64,000 nucleotides of DNA. It comes from Patescibacteria group bacterium (GTDB lineage Bacteria; Patescibacteriota; Minisyncoccia; Phycocordibacterales; UBA918). A model generated the notes under the pieces. The model saw only the letters and a list, made by a program, of their open reading frames with translations. It was not told where the DNA came from and did no database searches. Position numbers and translations under genes: made by a program. Shown here piece by piece: positions 2,242 to 54,331 of this stretch. The stretch covers positions 14,078 to 78,077 of the forward strand of contig JAIEOU010000005.1 in assembly GCA_019750255.1 (NCBI GenBank), given 5' to 3'. Numbering within the stretch: the stretch's first letter is position 1; each line of letters opens with the position of its first letter.

Positions 2242-3309
2242 ATGGCCGTCGACTACAAGCGAGAACTGAATACGCTCATTGACCTGGTTATCGAAGAGCG
2301 TGCCTCAGACCTGCATTTTTCCGTCGGTGCACATCCGATTATCCGCGTCTCAGGTTCTCTGATTCCCTTGTTAAAAAAACCCATCCTTACCGATGAGGAT
2401 ATGCTCGGCTTTGCTAAGGCGCTCATCAGAAAAGATATCTATGAACGCTATGAAGGACGTAAAGAGGTGGACTTTTCTTTTGAGAATACCGAATCCGTCC
2501 GCTTTCGTGGCAATGCGTACTACCAACGCGGACGTATGGCAATTGCCCTTCGCCTCATTCCGAATGTCATTCGTACTTTTGCGGATTTAAATCTGCCGCC
2601 AATTCTGGAAAGCTTTACTCAGCGGCCACAGGGTTTCTTTTTGTGTGTTGGGCCAGTAGGGCAGGGAAAGTCTACGACGCTTGCAGCCATGGTAAATCAC
2701 ATTAACCAAACTCGTTCGGAGCACATCGTTACCATTGAGGACCCTATCGAGTACGTGTACACCGAAGACAAGGCGCTCATTGATCAGCGTGAAGTGGGTA
2801 TCGATACTGAAAGCTTCCAGGTTGCGCTCAACGCTGCCTTTCGTGAAGACGTTGATGTGATTTTGGTAGGTGAGATGCGGAATATGGAAACTATTTCAAC
2901 CGCCGTAACTGCGGCTGAAACCGGCCATTTAGTGTATTCGACCCTTCACACAAATGACGCCGCACAGACCATTAATCGAATCATCGATACGTTTCCGGGT
3001 GACCAGCAAAGCCAAATCCGCACCCAGCTAGCAGGGTCTCTCATTGCTATCTTCTCGCAGCGACTCATTCCACACATTGCGGGTGGTCTTGTGCCAGCGT
3101 ATGAGCTGCTTATCAACAACAGTGCGGTAGCTAACCTAATTCGAGAAAATCGCGTTCATGAGATTAATTCCGTCATCGAGACTGGGCTTGAGCAGGGAAT
3201 GATTGACATGAATCGTTCTCTGTTACGTTTGGTACAGAACGGAGATATTACCGTAGAGAACGCATTTACCTACTCAACCAACCCTAAAGGTCTCGAACGC
3301 CTCATGTAA
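2242..3309 (+). CDS. pilT: Twitching motility ATPase PilT (pilus retraction)
   Basis: 355 aa. Walker A GPVGQGKSTT, the AIRNLIRE-like C-terminal motif (AVANLIRENRVHEI) and a PilT-typical N-terminus. Confidence 0.85.
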   Translation: MAVDYKRELNTLIDLVIEERASDLHFSVGAHPIIRVSGSLIPLLKKPILTDEDMLGFAKALIRKDIYERYEGRKEVDFSFENTESVRFRGNAYYQRGRMAIALRLIPNVIRTFADLNLPPILESFTQRPQGFFLCVGPVGQGKSTTLAAMVNHINQTRSEHIVTIEDPIEYVYTEDKALIDQREVGIDTESFQVALNAAFREDVDVILVGEMRNMETISTAVTAAETGHLVYSTLHTNDAAQTINRIIDTFPGDQQSQIRTQLAGSLIAIFSQRLIPHIAGGLVPAYELLINNSAVANLIRENRVHEINSVIETGLEQGMIDMNRSLLRLVQNGDITVENAFTYSTNPKGLERLM

Positions 3310-3312
3310 TAT

Positions 3313-4530
3313 ATGCTTTTCAAATACATAGCAATCGATAAGGGGAATGTACAAAGGGAAGGCACCGTTGAGGCGGCCAGTATTGATGCCGCTATTTCAG
3401 CTGTACAAAAGCGTGGCTACACAGTAACCTCGATTGATCCAATTGACGAAAAAGGTTCGATAACTGATTTGCTTAATTTTGATTTTGCAATATTTCACAG
3501 CGTGTCAAACAAAGACATTGTTATTTTGTCTCGACAAATTTCCACGTTGTTTCAAGCGCATGTTTCACCACTGCGTATTTTCCGTCTCCTGTCGGCCGAG
3601 GTAGGAAATGCACAGCTGCAAATTGTAATGAATAAGATTGTTGATGACTTGCAAGCGGGGAGTTCAATTTCTCGGGCTTTGGCGGCCCATCCAAAGGTAT
3701 TCTCTTCCTTCTATGTCAACATGGTGCGGGCGGGGGAGGAATCGGGATCGCTCGAGAAATCCTTTGCCTACCTAGCCGACTACCTGGACCGTTCGTATGA
3801 AATTGTTGCAAAAGCCAGAAACGCTCTAGTCTACCCAGCCTTCGTGGTCACTATCTTTTTTGGGGTGATGGGCCTGATGCTCACCCTAGTAATTCCAAAG
3901 ATTGCCAAAATTTTGACTGACTCTGGGCAGGAGCTGCCGATTTATACAAAGATTGTTATTGGTCTTTCCGAGTTCTTAATTGGCTATCTTCCGTTTATAT
4001 TTATCGGTGTGGCTGCGACTGGGGTGGGGATGTGGCGTTTCGCCCGAACTGATGTTGGGCGCCGGACCATAGACGAGCTGAAAATCTCGCTCCCTGTTTT
4101 CGGTAATCTCCAGCGTAAGTTGTTGCTCACCCGCATCTGTGACAACCTCTCGACGATGCTTTCAAGTGGCGTATCGATGGTGCAAGCGCTCGAGGTGACA
4201 GCTGATGTGGTAGATAATACGGTCTTTAAAGAAATTGTTCAGTCGGCTCTCTTTGAAGTGAAGGGAGGACGGTCGTTTGCTGATTCCATCGCTGAGTATC
4301 CAGAAATTCCAACGGTTCTGTCACAAATGGCGCGCGTGGGTGAAGAAACCGGAAGTCTGTCGGAAATCATGACCACACTCGCCAATTTCTACCGACGTGA
4401 AGTGAACCAAGCAGTGGACACCATGATTGGGCTCATTGAACCAGCTATGATTGTGATGTTGGGTCTCGGTGTGGGTGTGCTCTTGGCATCGGTTTTGATG
4501 CCGATTTATAACCTCACCGGCAACTTCTAA
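3313..4530 (+). CDS. pilC: Type IV pilus inner-membrane platform protein PilC/GspF
   Basis: 405 aa with a duplicated GspF domain architecture and three TM segments. Sits between pilT and pilA. Confidence 0.85.
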   Translation: MLFKYIAIDKGNVQREGTVEAASIDAAISAVQKRGYTVTSIDPIDEKGSITDLLNFDFAIFHSVSNKDIVILSRQISTLFQAHVSPLRIFRLLSAEVGNAQLQIVMNKIVDDLQAGSSISRALAAHPKVFSSFYVNMVRAGEESGSLEKSFAYLADYLDRSYEIVAKARNALVYPAFVVTIFFGVMGLMLTLVIPKIAKILTDSGQELPIYTKIVIGLSEFLIGYLPFIFIGVAATGVGMWRFARTDVGRRTIDELKISLPVFGNLQRKLLLTRICDNLSTMLSSGVSMVQALEVTADVVDNTVFKEIVQSALFEVKGGRSFADSIAEYPEIPTVLSQMARVGEETGSLSEIMTTLANFYRREVNQAVDTMIGLIEPAMIVMLGLGVGVLLASVLMPIYNLTGNF

Positions 4531-16753: not shown

Positions 16754-16829
16754 TGGAGCCGACCCGGGGATTCGAACCCCGGACCTACGATTTACGATAC
16801 CGTTGCTCTACCATCTGAGCTAGGTCGGC
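16754..16829 (-). tRNA. tRNA-Thr (CGT)
   Basis: The reverse complement is GCCGACC...anticodon loop auCGUaa...GGTTCGAATCC...GGTCGGC-T-CCA, with CCA encoded. Confidence 0.8.
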
Positions 16830-16940
16830 AATGGTAAAAATAATAGCACAAATAAAAAAGTAGATGTGACGGTGGTTTGAATCTATAAACTTTTGTTTTG
16901 TTAAATAGTAGACTAATATTACAATATAGTATCGCTCTGT

Positions 16941-17558
16941 ATGATAAATAAAAGTACCTTACAAAAGTTATATGGTGAAAAAAAGTATTCTTCTGTTCAG
17001 ATAGCTAAGGAGCGTGGCTGTTCACCGGGACAAGTTAATTACTGGCTGTCTAAGTATTGTATTAAGAAGCGATCAATTTCCGATGCGGTATATGAGAAAT
17101 CTAACCCTGGTGGGGATCCATTTAGTTTACTTAAGGTGCGCTCTAAAGAGGAGTGGTTTTTGTATGGTCTTGGTCTGGGGTTGTATTGGGGAGAAGGTAA
17201 TAAAGCTAATCGCCTAGCTGTTCGACTTGGTAACACTGACCCTGGTCTTGTCCGAACGTTTCTTCGTTTTCTCTCGACCATTTACCGTGTTGACACCAGT
17301 CGTCTACGATTTGGTTTACAAATTTTCTCAGATTTAGATCCGGTGGAAGCAAAAGCATTTTGGTCAAAGGAACTTGGTGTAAGTGCTACGCAATTCCAAA
17401 AAACAGCTACAGTCTCTCGAATCCGCCGCGGAACGTACACGCATAAGGCTGCACATGGTGTACTCACTGTTTATTTTTCAAATACTAAACTTCGTGCTAC
17501 TATCATGGCCGCAATTGAAAAATTGCAAAAGCAACAGAACAGTACACTGCCGATGTAG
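16941..17558 (+). CDS. HTH + LAGLIDADG-like (single-motif) putative homing endonuclease/maturase
   Basis: N-terminal HTH (SSVQIAKERGCSPGQVNYWLSKY). The motif GLGLYWGEGNK aligns to LAGLIDADGS (G-L-x-x-G-E-G-N). Its stop lies 10 nt inside the intron-containing tRNA-Thr. Paralog of 53323..53982. Confidence 0.5.
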   Translation: MINKSTLQKLYGEKKYSSVQIAKERGCSPGQVNYWLSKYCIKKRSISDAVYEKSNPGGDPFSLLKVRSKEEWFLYGLGLGLYWGEGNKANRLAVRLGNTDPGLVRTFLRFLSTIYRVDTSRLRFGLQIFSDLDPVEAKAFWSKELGVSATQFQKTATVSRIRRGTYTHKAAHGVLTVYFSNTKLRATIMAAIEKLQKQQNSTLPM

Positions 17559-17819
17559 CTCAGCTGGTAGAGCACTTCCATGGTGGGTCGCATGACCTTG
17601 CCCGTGCTTGCGGTAACGTGAGCAACGAATCCCGAATAACGGTTAATAGCCATGTGTTGGCCAAGACCGTGGCCTTCTTTGCAAGAAGGCCCGAACGACT
17701 GCCAAGGGAGCACCAATTAAATGGTGCAAGATACAGTCTAGCCCCTCGATATGCACATAAATAAACGAGGGTGTAAGCGAAGGAAGAGGTCTCCGGTTCG
17801 ATCCCGGACATCGGCTCCA
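17549..17819 (+). tRNA. tRNA-Thr (GGT) interrupted by a ~195-nt group I-like intron between positions 36 and 37
   Basis: 5' exon GCCGATG-TAGCTCAGCTGGTAGAGC-A-CTTCC-AUGGU (17549-17584). 3' exon AA-GGAAG-AGGTC-TCCGGTTCGATCCCGGA-CATCGGC-T-CCA (17780-17819). Acceptor, D, anticodon and T stems all pair. The rule that the 5' exon ends in U and the intron ends in G is met only for a 36/37 insertion. Confidence 0.7.
17585..17779 (+). mobile_element. Candidate group I intron (IC3-like, same anticodon-loop position as the Azoarcus tRNA-Ile and Agrobacterium tRNA-Arg introns)
   Basis: R/S-like elements form P7: cgaacGACUGccaa and aagauaCAGUCuag (compare S consensus AAGAUAUAGUCC). It ends in G (omegaG) directly before the 3' exon. 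No ORF lies inside. Confidence 0.55.
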
Positions 17820-17822
17820 CAT

Positions 17823-17846
17823 AAAACCCCGCAAGGGGTTTTATTT
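17823..17846 (+). terminator. Rho-independent terminator after tRNA-Thr
   Basis: aaaacccc-gcaa-ggggtttt. Confidence 0.8.
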
Positions 17847-17861
17847 ATCTCAAAAAGCGAG

Positions 17862-17890
17862 AAGGCCGCCCGGTTGGGCGGCCTTGCATT
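17862..17890. terminator. Second GC-rich hairpin (likely bidirectional terminator for the convergent genes)
   Basis: aaggccgccc-ggtt-gggcggcctt. Confidence 0.5.
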
Positions 17891-18376
17891 TTAATGATCC
17901 ATGAACCTTCGAGATCGAGCGAGGTTGAATAGTTTGCTGGCTGCCCGGCGAAGGATTGAGCACGTCAGCGAGTGGTCGTTGAGTATGCCGGCATCGAGCC
18001 ACCCTGCTTCTTCCGGTCCACGAGCCAGCGTGTGTTCTTCTGCTGGGGTAACGATGACGATAGGCAAATGTATGCGATAGGGAATGTCAGCTGCGATAAC
18101 ACTCGTGGTCCCCTCAAATGGCGATTGTTGCGGAATTACCCCCGCCGTACCAATGTCCTTTCCGGTGAAGCGAAGTGCGTGTGGCCCGACTTTTTCTACT
18201 ACTAGTCTTGTAACTGTATTCAAAAGAAAGTGAGGCGGTAGTTCCTGCTCAATGTGGACAACTCCCGCCATCAGTAGACGCCAATGATACCCCGGGCTAC
18301 GCACAGCCAATAATTTATAGTTTGGGTGGGGTGAGTCCGAGTTGATGCACATCGGCATGAAACGATGACTAATCAT
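17891..18376 (-). CDS. dCTP deaminase/dUTPase-superfamily protein (putative)
   Basis: 161 aa. ...TLARGPEEAGWLDAGILN resembles the Dcd/Dut G-x-x-D-x-G motif region. Weak assignment. Confidence 0.35.
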   Translation of the reverse strand: MISHRFMPMCINSDSPHPNYKLLAVRSPGYHWRLLMAGVVHIEQELPPHFLLNTVTRLVVEKVGPHALRFTGKDIGTAGVIPQQSPFEGTTSVIAADIPYRIHLPIVIVTPAEEHTLARGPEEAGWLDAGILNDHSLTCSILRRAASKLFNLARSRRFMDH

Positions 18377-18468: not shown

Positions 18469-19350
18469 ATGAAACCTGAAGAAAAGAGCGCCCGAATTGC
18501 CGAAATTGAAGCGGCCATGCTGGCGCCAACGTTTTGGAGCGACCCTCGGGTCGCGCAGTCACTCATCAAAGAGCTGCAAGATTTAAAGGATGTATCGGAT
18601 GGGAAGGGTAAATTTGATCGCAACGACGCCGTCTTTACGATTGTCGCGGGTGCTGGCGGTGATGACGCAGAAGACTTTGCACGTATGTTGGTTGAAATGT
18701 ATCAGCGGTATGCGCTCGGTCGGGGATGGCCAGTGACTATTCTTGATAGTAATGCTAATACCGAAAATGGCTACCGTAACATTACCTTTCAGGTGGGAGG
18801 AAAGGGAGCGTACGGTAGTTTACGGAGCGAGTCGGGCGTCCATCGACTCGTGCGCATCTCGCCATTTAACGCTAACGACAAACGACAGACTTCCTTTGTT
18901 CTCGTTGAGGTGTCACCCTATTTTGCTCAGGTAGAAGCGAGTGTCCTGGCTGACGATGATCTTGAGATTTCTTTTGCTCGGTCGGGCGGGGCTGGGGGGC
19001 AAAACGTTAATAAGCGGGAGACTGCCGTGCGCATCGTTCATACACCGACAAACATTTCTGTTAACGTTTCAACCGAACGATCACAGCAGCAGAACCGCGA
19101 GCGGGGGTTGGCACTCCTAGCTGGAAAGGTGTTCGCTTTTGAAGAGTTGCAACGAGCGCGTGAGCTTCAGGGACTGTCGGTAGAAAAGACAGTAAAGATT
19201 GAGTGGGGGAGTCAAATCCGTTCGTACGTCCTCCATCCCTACCAGCTGGTTAAGGATCACCGAACAAACTTAGAAATTCGGGATGTGGAGCGCGTACTGG
19301 GGGGCGATATCCAGGCGTTTATCGACGCTGCTAGCGAGGTGATTTTATAG
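18469..19350 (+). CDS. prfB: Peptide chain release factor 2
   Basis: SPF tripeptide (RISPFNAND) and GGQ ([10 protein letters not shown]). N-terminally short relative to E. coli RF2. No in-frame upstream segment or CUU-UGA frameshift site is present. Confidence 0.85.
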
Positions 19351-45428: not shown

Positions 45429-45436
45429 AGGCAAGT

Positions 45437-45726
45437 ATGATGATCGCCCTTTCTTCGTAAGAAGGTGGGGAGGAAAGTCCGAACACGTCCTGGGTGACCA
45501 GGAGTAGGGTAGCGGGTAACCCCCGTCCGCCGCGAGGCGCGAGGTGCGAACAGAGACGCCCAAAGTGAAAATGATGGGCTTCCTTCGTAAGAAGGAAGAG
45601 TCGTCACGGTAACGTGTCGGGTGAAACGGCAAAATCCTTACCTACGTGCAAGGCCGTGCTATCGGTAACGGCGGCAACGCCCGAACTGATAGAGAGCCGC
45701 TTGAGGGTGATGGTAACATCATTCCT
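45437..45726 (+). ncRNA. rnpB: RNase P RNA (bacterial type A, reduced ~290 nt)
   Basis: Universal P4 motif GGAGGAAAGTCCG. AGGGTAgCGGGTAACCCC, ACAGAGA, GGGTGAAACGG, and AGAGCCGCTTGA (the P4 3' strand) are also present. The 5' ATGATG pairs with the 3' CATCAT as P1. Confidence 0.8.
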
Positions 45727-45780
45727 AGGTATATGATCATCCTGTACGCATGTGCAGACAGAATTCGGCTTATATACATG

Positions 45781-45815
45781 AAACGCTGCGCCACTTAAGG
45801 CGCGGCGTTTCTTTT
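45781..45815 (+). terminator. Rho-independent terminator after rnpB
   Basis: aaacgctgcgcc-acttaa-ggcgcggcgtttctttt. Confidence 0.75.
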
Positions 45816-52985: not shown

Positions 52986-53225
52986 ATGTCAAAGACCGTA
53001 ACTATTTACAGTACCCCCGTTTGTCACTTCTGTCACAAGGCGAAAGAGTTTTTTAAAGAGAACAACATCGCCTACACGGAGCATGATGTGGCGTCTGATG
53101 CCGACAAGCGCACCGAGATGATTGATATGACTGGCCAAATGGGCGTGCCAGTGATTCAGGTCGATGAGGATGTAATCATTGGGTACGACGAAGATAAGTT
53201 GAAGGAGTTGCTCGAGATTAAGTAA
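52986..53225 (+). CDS. Glutaredoxin-like protein (NrdH/Grx family)
   Basis: 79 aa with a thioredoxin fold and CHFC active site. Confidence 0.8.
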   Translation: MSKTVTIYSTPVCHFCHKAKEFFKENNIAYTEHDVASDADKRTEMIDMTGQMGVPVIQVDEDVIIGYDEDKLKELLEIK

Positions 53226-53322: not shown

Positions 53323-53982
53323 ATGGCAAGTCGCCTTACAAGTGAAGCCGTAGAAGAGATTATAAACTTAAGAAAAACTGGTCATAGTTTGCCAGAGATA
53401 CGGCGAATTACAGGTCGTTCAAACGGTACCGTTTATAATTTGATCTCAAAAACTAATGTTCTGCCAGAATTCGCGTCACTTTTAAAATCAAAGCAAGGTG
53501 GTAGTAAAGAAAGGGCACGAATAGCATGGGAAAGTGCACGCTCTCATGCAAGCAGTATCATTCCCGAAATTTTTTCGCAACAGAGTATTCTTTTAGTGCT
53601 TGCGGCACTATACTGGGGTGAGGGGACGAAGCATGAGCTCAACATAATAAATGGTGACCCTTGTCTGCTACGCACAACCGTTATTGGACTTCGTGCGCTA
53701 GGCGTTCATGATGATGAATTCCGCGTTACGGTTAGGTTGTTTGGAAAGATGCCCGAAGTAGATGCTATAAACTACTGGTCTACAGCTGTTGATGTTCCAA
53801 AACACCAGTTCATAGGTATTGAACGATTGCCGGGTAACGAAAGTAAAAAGCTCCCTCGTGGAATGTGTCGTATCCGAGTTGCAAAAGGAGCAAAGTATTT
53901 CAAACTTATTATGAGTATGATAGATTTGATCAAATCTCAAAATTGCCCTGGTAGTTCAATGGATAGAACTTCGCACTCCTAA
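53323..53982 (+). CDS. HTH + LAGLIDADG-like putative homing endonuclease (paralog of 16941..17558)
   Basis: HTH SLPEIRRITGRSNGTVYNLISKT and motif LAALYWGEGTK. Its last 38 nt overlap tRNA-Arg, and its stop codon lies in the tRNA anticodon loop. Confidence 0.5.
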   Translation: MASRLTSEAVEEIINLRKTGHSLPEIRRITGRSNGTVYNLISKTNVLPEFASLLKSKQGGSKERARIAWESARSHASSIIPEIFSQQSILLVLAALYWGEGTKHELNIINGDPCLLRTTVIGLRALGVHDDEFRVTVRLFGKMPEVDAINYWSTAVDVPKHQFIGIERLPGNESKKLPRGMCRIRVAKGAKYFKLIMSMIDLIKSQNCPGSSMDRTSHS

Positions 53983-54016
53983 CGCGAGAATTCAGGTTCG
54001 ACTCCTGACTAGGGCA
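53945..54016 (+). tRNA. tRNA-Arg (CCT)
   Basis: Acceptor GCCCTGG/CTAGGGC, anticodon loop cuCCUaa and T-arm TCAGGTTCGACTCCTGA. No intron. Confidence 0.75.
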
Positions 54017-54037
54017 CAGAGCTGGTATACTAAAGTT

Positions 54038-54331
54038 ATGAAAGACATCCCCGATGTGGTGACAAACGAGCAGCTAAAAACCTTGCTCGAGGAAAATAAG
54101 CGTCTTCTGTCGGAGAATAACGAAATGCTTCACAAGCTCCGTCGGGGAGCACTATGGGCGACCGTCTTTAGGGTGGTCTGGTTTGCCTTTATTGTAGGGC
54201 TTCCCATTGCTTTGTACTACATGATATTAGAACCTAACCTGGCGACGCTCGAGCGTGCCTGGGGAGTGATTGAATCAAGCGTGCAAGACGTATCTGGGTG
54301 GCAGCGTTTCTTTGATCAAGCGGGTTCGTAA
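54038..54331 (+). CDS. Hypothetical small single-pass membrane protein
   Basis: 97 aa. N-terminal coiled-coil-like region, then one TM helix. Confidence 0.45.
   Translation: MKDIPDVVTNEQLKTLLEENKRLLSENNEMLHKLRRGALWATVFRVVWFAFIVGLPIALYYMILEPNLATLERAWGVIESSVQDVSGWQRFFDQAGS

Follow-up and report, generated by a model that had tools for sequence, protein, structure and literature searches.

A 64,000-nucleotide stretch of DNA from a Patescibacteria group bacterium (contig JAIEOU010000005.1), referred to below as the window, contains two related genes whose 3′ ends run into tRNA genes. The two open reading frames (ORFs), ORF1 and ORF2, each encode an N-terminal helix-turn-helix (HTH) module followed by a predicted LAGLIDADG-like domain with a single conserved motif. 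ORF1 belongs to the subfamily linked to tRNA-Thr(GGU), termed F1, and ORF2 to the subfamily linked to tRNA-Arg(CCU), termed F2. Coordinates are window positions, and labels such as L002, L043 or L175 denote fetched contigs of relatives. The main features of the two loci are the following:

16941..17558, + strand: ORF1, open reading frame of 205 aa, HTH + LAGLIDADG-like, F1
16947..17093, + strand: N-terminal helix-turn-helix module of ORF1, residues about 3-51
17145..17543, + strand: predicted LAGLIDADG-like domain of ORF1, residues 69-201
17178..17204, + strand: motif G-L-Y-W-G-E-G-N-K of ORF1, residues 80-88; the predicted motif helix ends with E85
17549..17584, + strand: exon 1 of tRNA-Thr(GGU), with the anticodon GGT at its end, read directly from the sequence
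17585..17779, + strand: ORF-less divergent group I intron of 195 nt at tRNA position 36/37, from an alignment of 49 sequences
17780..17819, + strand: exon 2 of tRNA-Thr(GGU) with encoded CCA, read directly from the sequence; the exon body extends to 17815, followed by T and CCA
53323..53982, + strand: ORF2, 219 aa, HTH + LAGLIDADG-like, F2
53329..53451, + strand: N-terminal helix-turn-helix module of ORF2, residues about 3-43
53578..53943, + strand: predicted LAGLIDADG-like domain of ORF2, residues 86-207
53608-53631, + strand: motif LYWGEGTK of ORF2
53945..54017, + strand: intronless tRNA-Arg(CCU), found by ARAGORN and Rfam

The tRNA-Thr(GGU) gene is split by its intron and is missed by Rfam and by ARAGORN run without the intron option. 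Exon 1 reads GCCGATG TA GCTC AGCTGGTA GAGC A CTTCC AT GGT, and exon 2 reads AA GGAAG AGGTC TCCGG TTCGATC CCGGA CATCGGC, then T + CCA. The TAG stop codon of ORF1 (17556-17558) consists of U8, A9 and G10 of this tRNA, which gives an overlap of 10 nt, and the ORF ends 27 nt from the 5′ end of the intron, so that it lies outside the intron. With tRNA-Arg(CCU) placed at 53945-54017, ORF2 covers the first 38 nt of the tRNA, and its TAA stop corresponds to tRNA nt 36-38 in the anticodon loop. A first-pass annotation of the window, made by a model, had described both ORFs, the intron-containing tRNA-Thr after the first of them, and the reach of the second 38 nt into tRNA-Arg(CCU) as far as the anticodon loop. 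All of this was found as described, with both frames open on the + strand. The same annotation placed the ORF1 stop in the acceptor stem of tRNA-Thr; the stop is indeed within the tRNA, but at nt 8-10, just past that stem.

Linkage of the gene family to tRNA genes

The association with tRNA genes was followed in two samples. For F1, a scan of one genome per species gave 175 confirmed relatives of ORF1, of which the best 80 were used for the comparison of loci (the locus total is given as 81 in the intron and residue counts). For F2, a metagenome scan with the ORF2 family gave at least 513 relatives, and the best 80 (31-50% identity) were used. In F1, the ORF is directly followed by tRNA-Thr(GGU) in 80/80 of these best relatives, which come from numerous lineages of Patescibacteria, including records labelled Saccharibacteria, Paceibacteria, Kaiserbacteria, Peribacteria and Doudnabacteria. 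The two genes overlap by 10, 21, 38 or about 48 nt, or are otherwise separated by a gap usually shorter than 50 nt. In F2, an intronless tRNA-Arg(CCU) is the next gene after the ORF in 78/80 loci, at a distance of -51 to +95, down to 31% identity. The neighborhood beyond the tRNA is variable among the loci. Since 80/80 F1 and 78/80 F2 loci precede their own tRNA, the juxtaposition is far beyond chance, and the suggestion that it is a real arrangement, which its absence in related genomes would have contradicted, is borne out. As is typical of free-standing endonuclease genes, the ORFs lie outside any intron or intein, at a fixed site beside a conserved putative target gene.

The ORFs enter the tRNA in all three reading frames, and the C-terminal tails of the homologs are translated tRNA. 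In F1, tails ending in LPM and PS stop at the TAG of nt 8-10, those ending in AQG stop at a TAG in the D-arm, and those with SSAGRA stop at U36-A37-A38, while the tail ANVAQSVERIHGKSQ continues into the intron. Similar read-through of the tRNA, in several frames, occurs in F2. Because the ORF abuts the tRNA gene, it probably has no stop codon of its own and ends at the first in-frame stop inside the tRNA.

Further paralogs were found in front of other tRNA genes:

L158, 445-1131: paralog before tRNA-Arg(UCU)
L011, 808-1488: paralog before tRNA-Met/Ile(CAU)
L043, 1384-2064: paralog before tRNA-Met/Ile(CAU)
L060, 3782-4444: paralog before tRNA-Tyr(GUA)

They are sporadic, occurring among the fetched loci before 1/23 tRNA-Tyr, 2/17 tRNA-Met(CAU) and 1/3 tRNA-Arg(UCU) genes. 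L060 carries two family members in tandem, each ahead of its own tRNA. Two short contigs of 1.4-1.7 kb labelled Phycisphaerae (L034) and Pedobacter (L079), which carry the ORF1 family together with an intron-bearing tRNA-Thr(GGU), are probably binning errors.

The family is large. A superfamily profile searched against 1.84 billion cluster representatives gave 6879 matches at E<=1e-3 and 3414 at E<=1e-10, mostly of 200-230 aa, with the caveat that some strong matches are long proteins aligned only through repeated HTH segments. The superfamily comprises thousands of 50%-identity clusters, with members in Patescibacteria and in large viral contigs. IMG/VR viral contigs of 85-497 kb (L188-L204) carry 17 distant relatives, which have 22-32% identity and all contain LYWGEG[NTS]K. 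Nearly all of these lie within arrays of 4-16 tRNA genes per 6.5 kb, on either strand relative to the tRNAs. Three of them abut or overlap tRNA-Val, and the one on L190 precedes an intron-containing tRNA. Phage records of GenBank contained no relative of the family.

A few proteins of 396-576 aa (P0427, P0442, P0447 and P0491) are tandem fusions of two HTH + LAGLIDADG-like units. Monomeric two-domain LAGLIDADG enzymes are themselves derived from homodimers, and by this parallel the fusions would support a functional unit of two domains in the present family as well. The high content of Ala and Arg in several of the fusions suggests that their hosts have high-GC genomes and lie outside Patescibacteria, and the tail of P0447 (GGGFEPP) resembles a translated tRNA T-arm.

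Paralogy, conserved residues and predicted fold

By sequence comparison, ORF1 and ORF2 are full-length paralogs. BLASTP aligns them with E=4e-9 over the core, and the comparison of the two family alignments by hhalign gives a probability of 99.3% (E=4e-20, 183 columns). The shared and paralogous architecture noted in the first-pass annotation, an N-terminal HTH followed by the motif, is upheld by this comparison, and GLYWGEGNK and LYWGEGTK are invariant in their respective families. A search of all six frames of the window with hmmsearch found no third copy besides ORF1 and ORF2. The HTH module is supported by sub-threshold Pfam HTH matches, by PHROG matches and by both structure models. Two PHROG families with the annotation HNH homing endonuclease match the N-terminal 50 residues of ORF1 (E=6e-6 and 1.7e-4), so that its HTH is of a type also present in phage homing endonucleases.

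The second domain is not recognized by existing profiles. Pfam gave no LAGLIDADG match at E<=10 for either window protein and only weak HTH matches, NCBIfam gave nothing useful for either of them, and the search of PDB sequences with the single proteins gave no useful match. By these searches, ORF1 and ORF2 are not assigned to any curated LAGLIDADG family (Pfam LAGLIDADG_1, _2, _3 or Hom_end), so that the Pfam check that had been proposed to establish a LAGLIDADG relationship failed for both proteins. The opposite outcome, an assignment to an unrelated family with no endonuclease fold, did not occur either: two structure models resemble the LAGLIDADG fold, but the profiles lend this no support.

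The models were produced with AlphaFold2 from the two family alignments, with a predicted local distance difference test (pLDDT) of 82.7 and a predicted template-modelling score (pTM) of 0.66 for ORF1, and with a pLDDT of 91.5 and a pTM of 0.73 for ORF2. Both consist of an N-terminal helical HTH and a domain that opens with a long helix, which stops at the invariant Glu (residues 69-85 in ORF1, with G80-L-Y-W-G-E85-G86; residues 86-100 in ORF2, with Y97-W-G-E100-G). The core of LAGLIDADG enzymes runs alpha-beta-beta-alpha-beta-beta-alpha. The predicted topology departs from that of the known enzymes: strands one and two are separated by a helix, and a helix and a strand are inserted ahead of the last strand. 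In the comparison with known structures, the ORF1 model scored 7.6 with the TliVMA intein endonuclease, 7.0 with WhiA, 6.7 with I-Tsp061I, 6.5 with I-DmoI, 6.2 with PI-PfuI and 5.7 with I-CeuI. The ORF2 model scored 7.5 with WhiA, 6.6 with both I-Tsp061I and I-CeuI, 6.2 with I-DmoI, I-CvuI and I-Vdi141I, 5.5 with I-MsoI and 5.1 with I-CreI. Foldseek against the PDB returned weak OmpA-like matches only and did not recover the LAGLIDADG fold. With fairly high confidence, the C-terminal domain is LAGLIDADG-like by its fold in two independent models.

The catalytic Asp or Glu of LAGLIDADG enzymes closes the motif helix. In the models of both ORF1 and ORF2, likewise, the motif helix is rich in small residues and has an acidic residue at its end, with Gly next. 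W83, G84, E85 and G86 are invariant in 81/81 F1 loci, and K88 is present in 79/81; overall, W, G, E, G, K, N and D are kept in all or nearly all 81 loci, with or without the intron. The residues conserved in both F1 and F2 comprise W, G, E, G, x, K, followed by N-x-D-P, one Trp and a number of Gly and Lys residues. Such a pattern is what an active site together with a helix-packing interface would look like. Outside the motif, Pfam DUF3606 (PF12244) matches ORF1 residues about 139-153 (about 17355-17400) in 22/35 F1 members, with a best E=3.7e-8.

The tRNA-Thr(GGU) site and its intron

The presence or absence of the ORF in close relatives was compared for F1 only. The adjoining gene for release factor 2 (RF2), prfB (18469-19347), served as the anchor: contexts were fetched for the closest RF2 homologs, and the members of the clade have 76-87% RF2 identity to the window. 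The gene order tRNA-Met, tRNA-Asp, tRNA-Thr(CGU), tRNA-Thr(GGU), prfB, ftsE, ftsX, pyrG is kept within this clade, in which the following states were observed:

Window, L002, L043: ORF1 intact, tRNA-Thr(GGU) with intron
L177/178: last ~39 codons of ORF1, ending in IYFSNTKLHATIMAAIEKLREGCSIMPM and a stop, tRNA-Thr(GGU) with intron
L182: last ~25 codons of ORF1, tRNA-Thr(GGU) intronless
L175/176, L179/180, L184, L186/187: ORF1 absent, tRNA-Thr(GGU) intronless

These states are interleaved on the RF2 neighbor-joining tree. For instance, L043, with the ORF intact, is the sister of L184, which lacks it, and L177, with a remnant, is the sister of L175, which also lacks it. The comparison of related loci proposed in the first-pass annotation thus found intact, remnant and absent states at the same site. 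A homing endonuclease gene classically leaves just such a combination of states among close relatives. Since the gene is absent or a stump in relatives with the same tRNA and neighbors, it is dispensable.

Several of the loci bear traces of rearrangement at the tRNA. Between the ORF1 stump and the intron-bearing tRNA-Thr(GGU) of L177 (about 2960-3211) lie tandem repeats of an acceptor-stem mini-helix (GCCGATGTAAGAGAAATCTTTCATCGGC) and a 46-nt spacer, with a copy number that is uncertain owing to a run of N (a scaffold gap) within the repeats. L175 contains a degenerate extra copy of tRNA-Thr(GGU) at about 1545-1615 (beginning GTCGATGGGGCTCAGTTGGCAGCGCACGTTCATAGATAAGGACGAG), where ORF1 sits in the window; this pseudo-tRNA lies between tRNA-Thr(CGU) and two unrelated small ORFs. 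The pseudo-tRNA and the repeats may be indirect traces of gene conversion. In L182, an ORF weakly matching HNH_3 (1596-2365, - strand) takes the place of the lost 5′ portion of ORF1, and the stump runs into the intronless tRNA. An HNH gene above the Pfam HNH cut-off (3655-4071, - strand) also lies beside an ORF-less tRNA-Thr(GGU) in L098, an F2 locus, so that a second nuclease family, HNH, seems to use the same tRNA-Thr niche.

Three other candidate descriptions of the genes were rejected. An essential housekeeping function, first suggested by the high conservation, is contradicted by the same-synteny relatives without ORF1 or with stumps. An element with target-site duplication was dismissed because neither ORF is flanked in the window by direct repeats derived from the tRNA. 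Recent jumping was considered for an identical F2 protein found on 24 contigs; the places listed with upstream sequence have a single upstream context, which gives no sign of such mobility.

The intron of tRNA-Thr(GGU) forms one homologous family in 49 loci, with a mean identity of 67%. In the RNAalifold consensus of these 49 sequences, the U.G pair at the 5′ splice site and the terminal G are both present in 49/49, the GACUG/CAGUC helix is invariant, and 27/44 predicted pairs show compensatory changes, while P1 has just 3 exon pairs and 2 intron pairs. By its U.G pair, terminal G and covarying core helices, the segment 17585-17779 is a divergent group I intron, which Rfam RF00028 matches neither at the gathering threshold nor at E<=10. 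The segment belongs to a class already reported at position 36/37 of Patescibacteria tRNA-Thr(GGU) under the name "divergent group I introns", which RF00028 misses and which ARAGORN mislabels as Arg(GCG) 34/35 (PMC13011429). Both the miss and the mislabelling were reproduced here. According to the same work, group I introns are common in Patescibacteria tRNA genes, mostly without homing endonuclease genes, and its account of the present class does not mention an upstream ORF (PMC13011429).

The intron and ORF1 are distributed together. The intron is present in 49/81 ORF1 loci, compared with 3/95 complete Patescibacteria genomes (PMC13011429), and in the clade of the window it is found only with ORF1 or an ORF1 stump. 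The exon sequence CC-ATGGT|AA-GG is exact in 45/49 intron-bearing tRNAs. Its uninterrupted form, CCATGGTAAGG, occurs in 5/5 relatives without the ORF and in 3/32 intronless ORF1 loci (Fisher p=1.3e-4, not corrected for phylogeny). The other 29/32 intronless ORF1 loci have compensatory changes in the anticodon stem, e.g., GCATGGTAAGC. This avoidance of CCATGGTAAGG is the pattern expected if the ORF1 product cuts the palindromic anticodon arm, as a carrier genome must then hold either the intron or a resistant stem.

Other features surround ORF1 and its tRNA in the window:

16754..16829, - strand: divergent tRNA-Thr(CGU), 111 nt upstream of ORF1, with the same tRNA neighbors in relatives
17823..17885, + strand: two terminator-like hairpins closing the ORF1-tRNA unit
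17823-17842, + strand: the first of these hairpins, AAAACCCC-GCAA-GGGGTTTT, read directly from the sequence
17862-17885: the second hairpin, a two-way terminator-like structure

With tRNA-Thr(CGU) upstream and tRNA-Thr(GGU) downstream, ORF1 sits between two conserved tRNA genes. Their 5′ halves form a 30-nt inverted repeat with 87% complementarity (16804-16833 / 17545-17574), and in 14/80 F1 loci the ORF is likewise closely preceded by a divergent tRNA-Thr(UGU or CGU). The whole ORF1 + tRNA-Thr unit is flanked by an imperfect 22-nt inverted repeat (82%; 16932-16953 / 17839-17860), which is AT-rich and may be due to chance. Promoter-like sites around ORF1 are no more numerous than expected by chance. 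Between the terminators of tRNA-Thr and prfB lies an ORF of 161 aa on the minus strand (17891-18376), for which the Pfam search gave no match.

Interpretation and comparison with known systems

ORF1 and ORF2 are probably homing endonuclease genes of the free-standing kind, directed at tRNA genes, and ORF1 may also mobilize the adjoining intron in trans. The best explanation of the superfamily is a large group of single-motif LAGLIDADG-like proteins with an N-terminal nuclease-associated HTH, in which each subfamily is placed 5′ of one tRNA gene. The tRNA-gene-targeting mobile unit suggested in the first-pass annotation agrees with the linkage, with the decay and absence in relatives, with the relatives in viral tRNA arrays and with the predicted fold, but it receives no support from the profiles, and the nuclease activity is presumed. 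We infer this activity, as well as dimerization and homing by repair, from sequence.

The proposed mechanism can be outlined as follows. The protein would form a dimer through the GLYWGEG helix. In genomes without the element, it would recognize the DNA of its cognate tRNA gene and introduce a double-strand break there. Recombinational repair from the element-bearing genome would then copy the endonuclease gene together with the adjoining tRNA sequence, the conserved tRNA genes on one or both sides providing the homology. For ORF1, the most likely target would be the palindromic anticodon arm of tRNA-Thr(GGU), NNNCC-ATGGTAA-GGNNN, the center of which is the 36/37 intron site. A carrier genome would be protected by the intron or by the compensatory changes in its anticodon stem, and the endonuclease may also mobilize the ORF-less intron in trans by collaborative homing. 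The arrangement on which such homing depends, an ORF-less intron of the self-splicing type adjoining a free-standing endonuclease-like gene, is found for ORF1 only; ORF2 would act in the same way at tRNA-Arg(CCU) with no intron involved. If ORF and tRNA are co-transcribed, cleavage by RNase P would remove the stop codon of the ORF, which could keep the protein level low. The window encodes a bacterial class A RNase P RNA at 45432-45784 on the + strand (132 bits), which is relevant in that RNase P would cut ORF-tRNA transcripts within the last codons of the ORFs.

A number of observations weigh against this interpretation. On the side of the fold, LAGLIDADG_3 appears below threshold in just 3/35 F1 and 1/34 F2 members scanned singly (4/69), the family profile (A1) finds no match among PDB sequences, and the hhalign comparison with I-DmoI aligns the expected motif without significance. 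On the side of the target, three loci (L014, L038 and L062) combine an intact ORF1 with an uninterrupted CCATGGTAAGG, and the CCATGGTAAGG statistic is confounded by phylogeny and by the need of the intron's P1/P10 for the same exon bases. In Saccharimonadia-like loci the acceptor stem is lineage-specific and the anticodon stem tracks the intron, from which it follows that the intron can often move, or disappear, independently of ORF1. In F2 there is no intron, and no means of self-protection was identified. A role for the host would likewise be compatible with a motif so strongly conserved across deep divergences. Finally, the flanks are partly stable: about 1/4 of the F2 loci have glutaredoxin upstream and a 97-aa membrane protein downstream, as in the window, where the two genes lie at 52986-53225 and 54038-54331, and prfB lies downstream in 19 F1 loci. 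The distances of ORF1 and RF2 are correlated (Spearman 0.52), and their comparison gave no pair pointing to recent long-range transfer, so that inheritance looks largely vertical within clades. ORF1 is 34-46% divergent between hosts with RF2 differing by 13-20%, with a plateau near 47%, and this excess could reflect exchange among related lineages or fast saturation of unconstrained sites. A long residence with drive and loss inside populations or clades fits better than frequent jumps between distant lineages.

With respect to the intron, the first-pass annotation had offered two roles, a displaced maturase or the endonuclease partner of the adjacent intron. The partner role is plausible for ORF1, considering its co-distribution with the intron, but not for ORF2, whose tRNA is intronless. 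A maturase, i.e., a splicing cofactor displaced from the divergent group I intron of tRNA-Thr(GGU), is not favored and appears highly improbable. Such a role would agree with the co-occurrence of ORF1 and the intron above expectation (49/81 loci versus 3/95 complete genomes), and so divergent an intron with its short P1 could plausibly need help in folding. However, 32/81 ORF1 loci are intronless yet keep every invariant residue, all 78 F2 loci precede intronless tRNAs with the motif invariant, as do the paralogs at Arg(UCU), Met/Ile(CAU) and Tyr, and L177 retains the intron with a mere 39-codon stump of ORF1. Group I introns from tRNA-Asn and tRNA-Asp of Patescibacteria, of another class than the one in tRNA-Thr, self-splice in vitro (PMC13011429). 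As a general function of the family, maturase activity was rejected, since most paralogs lie ahead of intronless tRNAs.

Two further explanations assign the proteins a role for the host. A domesticated, non-cleaving nucleic-acid-binding factor, similar to WhiA, would attach to its own locus or transcript and affect the adjoining tRNA in cis, e.g., in the control of transcription, in the processing or folding of the precursor or in autoregulation, which would account for the gene having to remain fused to the tRNA gene. The very tight ORF-tRNA spacing in about 160 loci, which suggests co-transcription, the partly conserved synteny with correlated ORF1 and RF2 distances, and the persistence of the family at about 45-60% identity across many Patescibacteria lineages, with its invariant residues kept regardless of the intron, are all consistent with such a factor. 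It is nevertheless rather unlikely: the gene is dispensable, being absent or a stump beside the same tRNA and neighbors, most tRNA-Tyr, tRNA-Met(CAU) and tRNA-Arg(UCU) genes have no paralog, and the relatives on either strand of viral tRNA arrays are hard to reconcile with a role in cis. The Glu at the helix end is invariant here, unlike in WhiA, and a single domain with an N-terminal HTH stands against the two domains and C-terminal HTH of WhiA. Alternatively, a nuclease of benefit to the host in genome conflict would cut the tRNA genes or arrays of phages or competitors, with the resident copy protected by the intron or by sequence differences and the gene maintained by selection rather than by drive. 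The location of relatives within the tRNA arrays of large viral contigs, the strong motif conservation and the avoidance of the uninterrupted site in ORF-bearing genomes would suit this explanation, as would the effect of SegB-type endonucleases on the inheritance and amplification of phage tRNA regions (PMC2330249; PMC13096335). No match turned up in contexts of the PADLOC type, PADLOC itself not having been scanned. Repeated loss in close relatives is what a dispensable element would show, and a host-beneficial nuclease is improbable.

A broader form of the homing endonuclease reading is more tentative and is best regarded as possible but somewhat doubtful. According to it, a superfamily of tRNA-gene-specific homing endonucleases would have diversified across seven or more tRNA identities (Thr GGU, Arg CCU, Arg UCU, Met/Ile CAU, Tyr GUA, Val UAC/GAC and Gly GCC) with recognition of palindromic arms, and would include the first cellular case of collaborative homing. 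Each lineage would dock at the 5′ edge of its tRNA, the tRNA's own bases serving as the stop codon.

The spread of the mostly endonuclease-less tRNA introns of Patescibacteria had been left unexplained (PMC13011429), and the endonuclease-like gene just outside the tRNA is a concrete candidate for the driver of the one in tRNA-Thr(GGU). If this is true, it would be the first collaborative homing in a cellular genome and would explain the spread of endonuclease-free tRNA introns in Patescibacteria. The family also offers a working annotation for thousands of "hypothetical proteins" without a Pfam or NCBIfam assignment. Selfish endonucleases appear to have organized niches in the tRNA genes and arrays of very small bacterial genomes and of large contigs of phage-like character, which is of relevance to the turnover of tRNA genes and to errors of annotation and assembly, such as ORFs called through tRNAs and split tRNAs that are missed. 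Should the proteins prove active, they would provide compact nucleases whose targets in tRNA genes are long and predictable, with many natural variants of specificity on one scaffold, which would make them attractive for the engineering of meganucleases.

No description of the family emerged from the literature searches. According to the models, its closest structural relatives are I-DmoI, the I-CreI-type enzymes and WhiA. The functional unit of LAGLIDADG homing endonucleases consists of two domains and makes metal-dependent double-strand cuts with 4-nt 3′ overhangs. Like these enzymes (I-CreI, I-CeuI and I-MsoI, or the two-domain I-DmoI), the family has a predicted helix-packing motif with a terminal acidic residue followed by Gly, and tandem fused versions exist beside the single-motif form. 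GLYWGEGxK aligns with motif 2 of I-DmoI, GLYVAEGDK, an alignment that is not significant. In contrast to the known enzymes, the present proteins reach no Pfam profile at threshold, have an N-terminal HTH and a different predicted topology, are encoded by free-standing genes rather than within an intron or intein, and carry the motif W-G-E-G-x-K with invariant Trp and Lys. WhiA (DUF199) is a LAGLIDADG-derived transcription factor that has lost the catalytic acidic residues. It differs by its two LAGLIDADG domains and C-terminal HTH from the one domain, N-terminal HTH and invariant Glu found here, and the present genes are dispensable and patchy in their distribution.

The closest parallel in position is SegB of phage T4, a free-standing GIY-YIG homing endonuclease in a tRNA gene cluster, which cuts within the region of the tRNA genes in a related phage and thereby causes this region to be inherited preferentially (PMC2330249). 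In both cases a free-standing gene lies among tRNA genes, and the viral relatives described here are likewise located in tRNA arrays. However, SegB belongs to another nuclease family and is restricted to phages, whereas the present family occurs mainly in cellular Patescibacteria, with subfamilies fixed to the 5′ edge of one tRNA and often overlapping it. Specialization on tRNA genes is also known from intron-encoded endonucleases. The enzyme of the Synechocystis tRNA-fMet intron targets the anticodon region of the tRNA (Bonocora and Shub 2001, as cited in PMC3984707), and LAGLIDADG genes (PF03161) lie within cyanobacterial tRNA-Arg(CCU) introns at 36/37 (PMC13011429). Even the Arg CCU identity and the 36/37 position of the present loci recur among these systems, but here the gene is located outside the intron, 5′ of the tRNA, and the tRNA-Arg(CCU) of F2 is intronless.

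Collaborative or trans homing has been described for the psbA system of cyanophages and for mobE/I-TevIII of T4 (PMC3984707, PMC2790892). As in these pairs, an ORF-less intron lies by a free-standing gene, the intron would interrupt the presumed target, and ORF1 and the intron are co-distributed. The known cases concern protein-coding genes of phages, whereas here a bacterial tRNA gene is involved; many ORF1 loci are intronless, and the intron seems able to move without ORF1. Relative to all these systems, what appears new is a divergent motif and predicted topology, an N-terminal HTH, mainly cellular hosts with reduced genomes, and tRNA-specific subfamilies at the 5′ edge of the tRNA.

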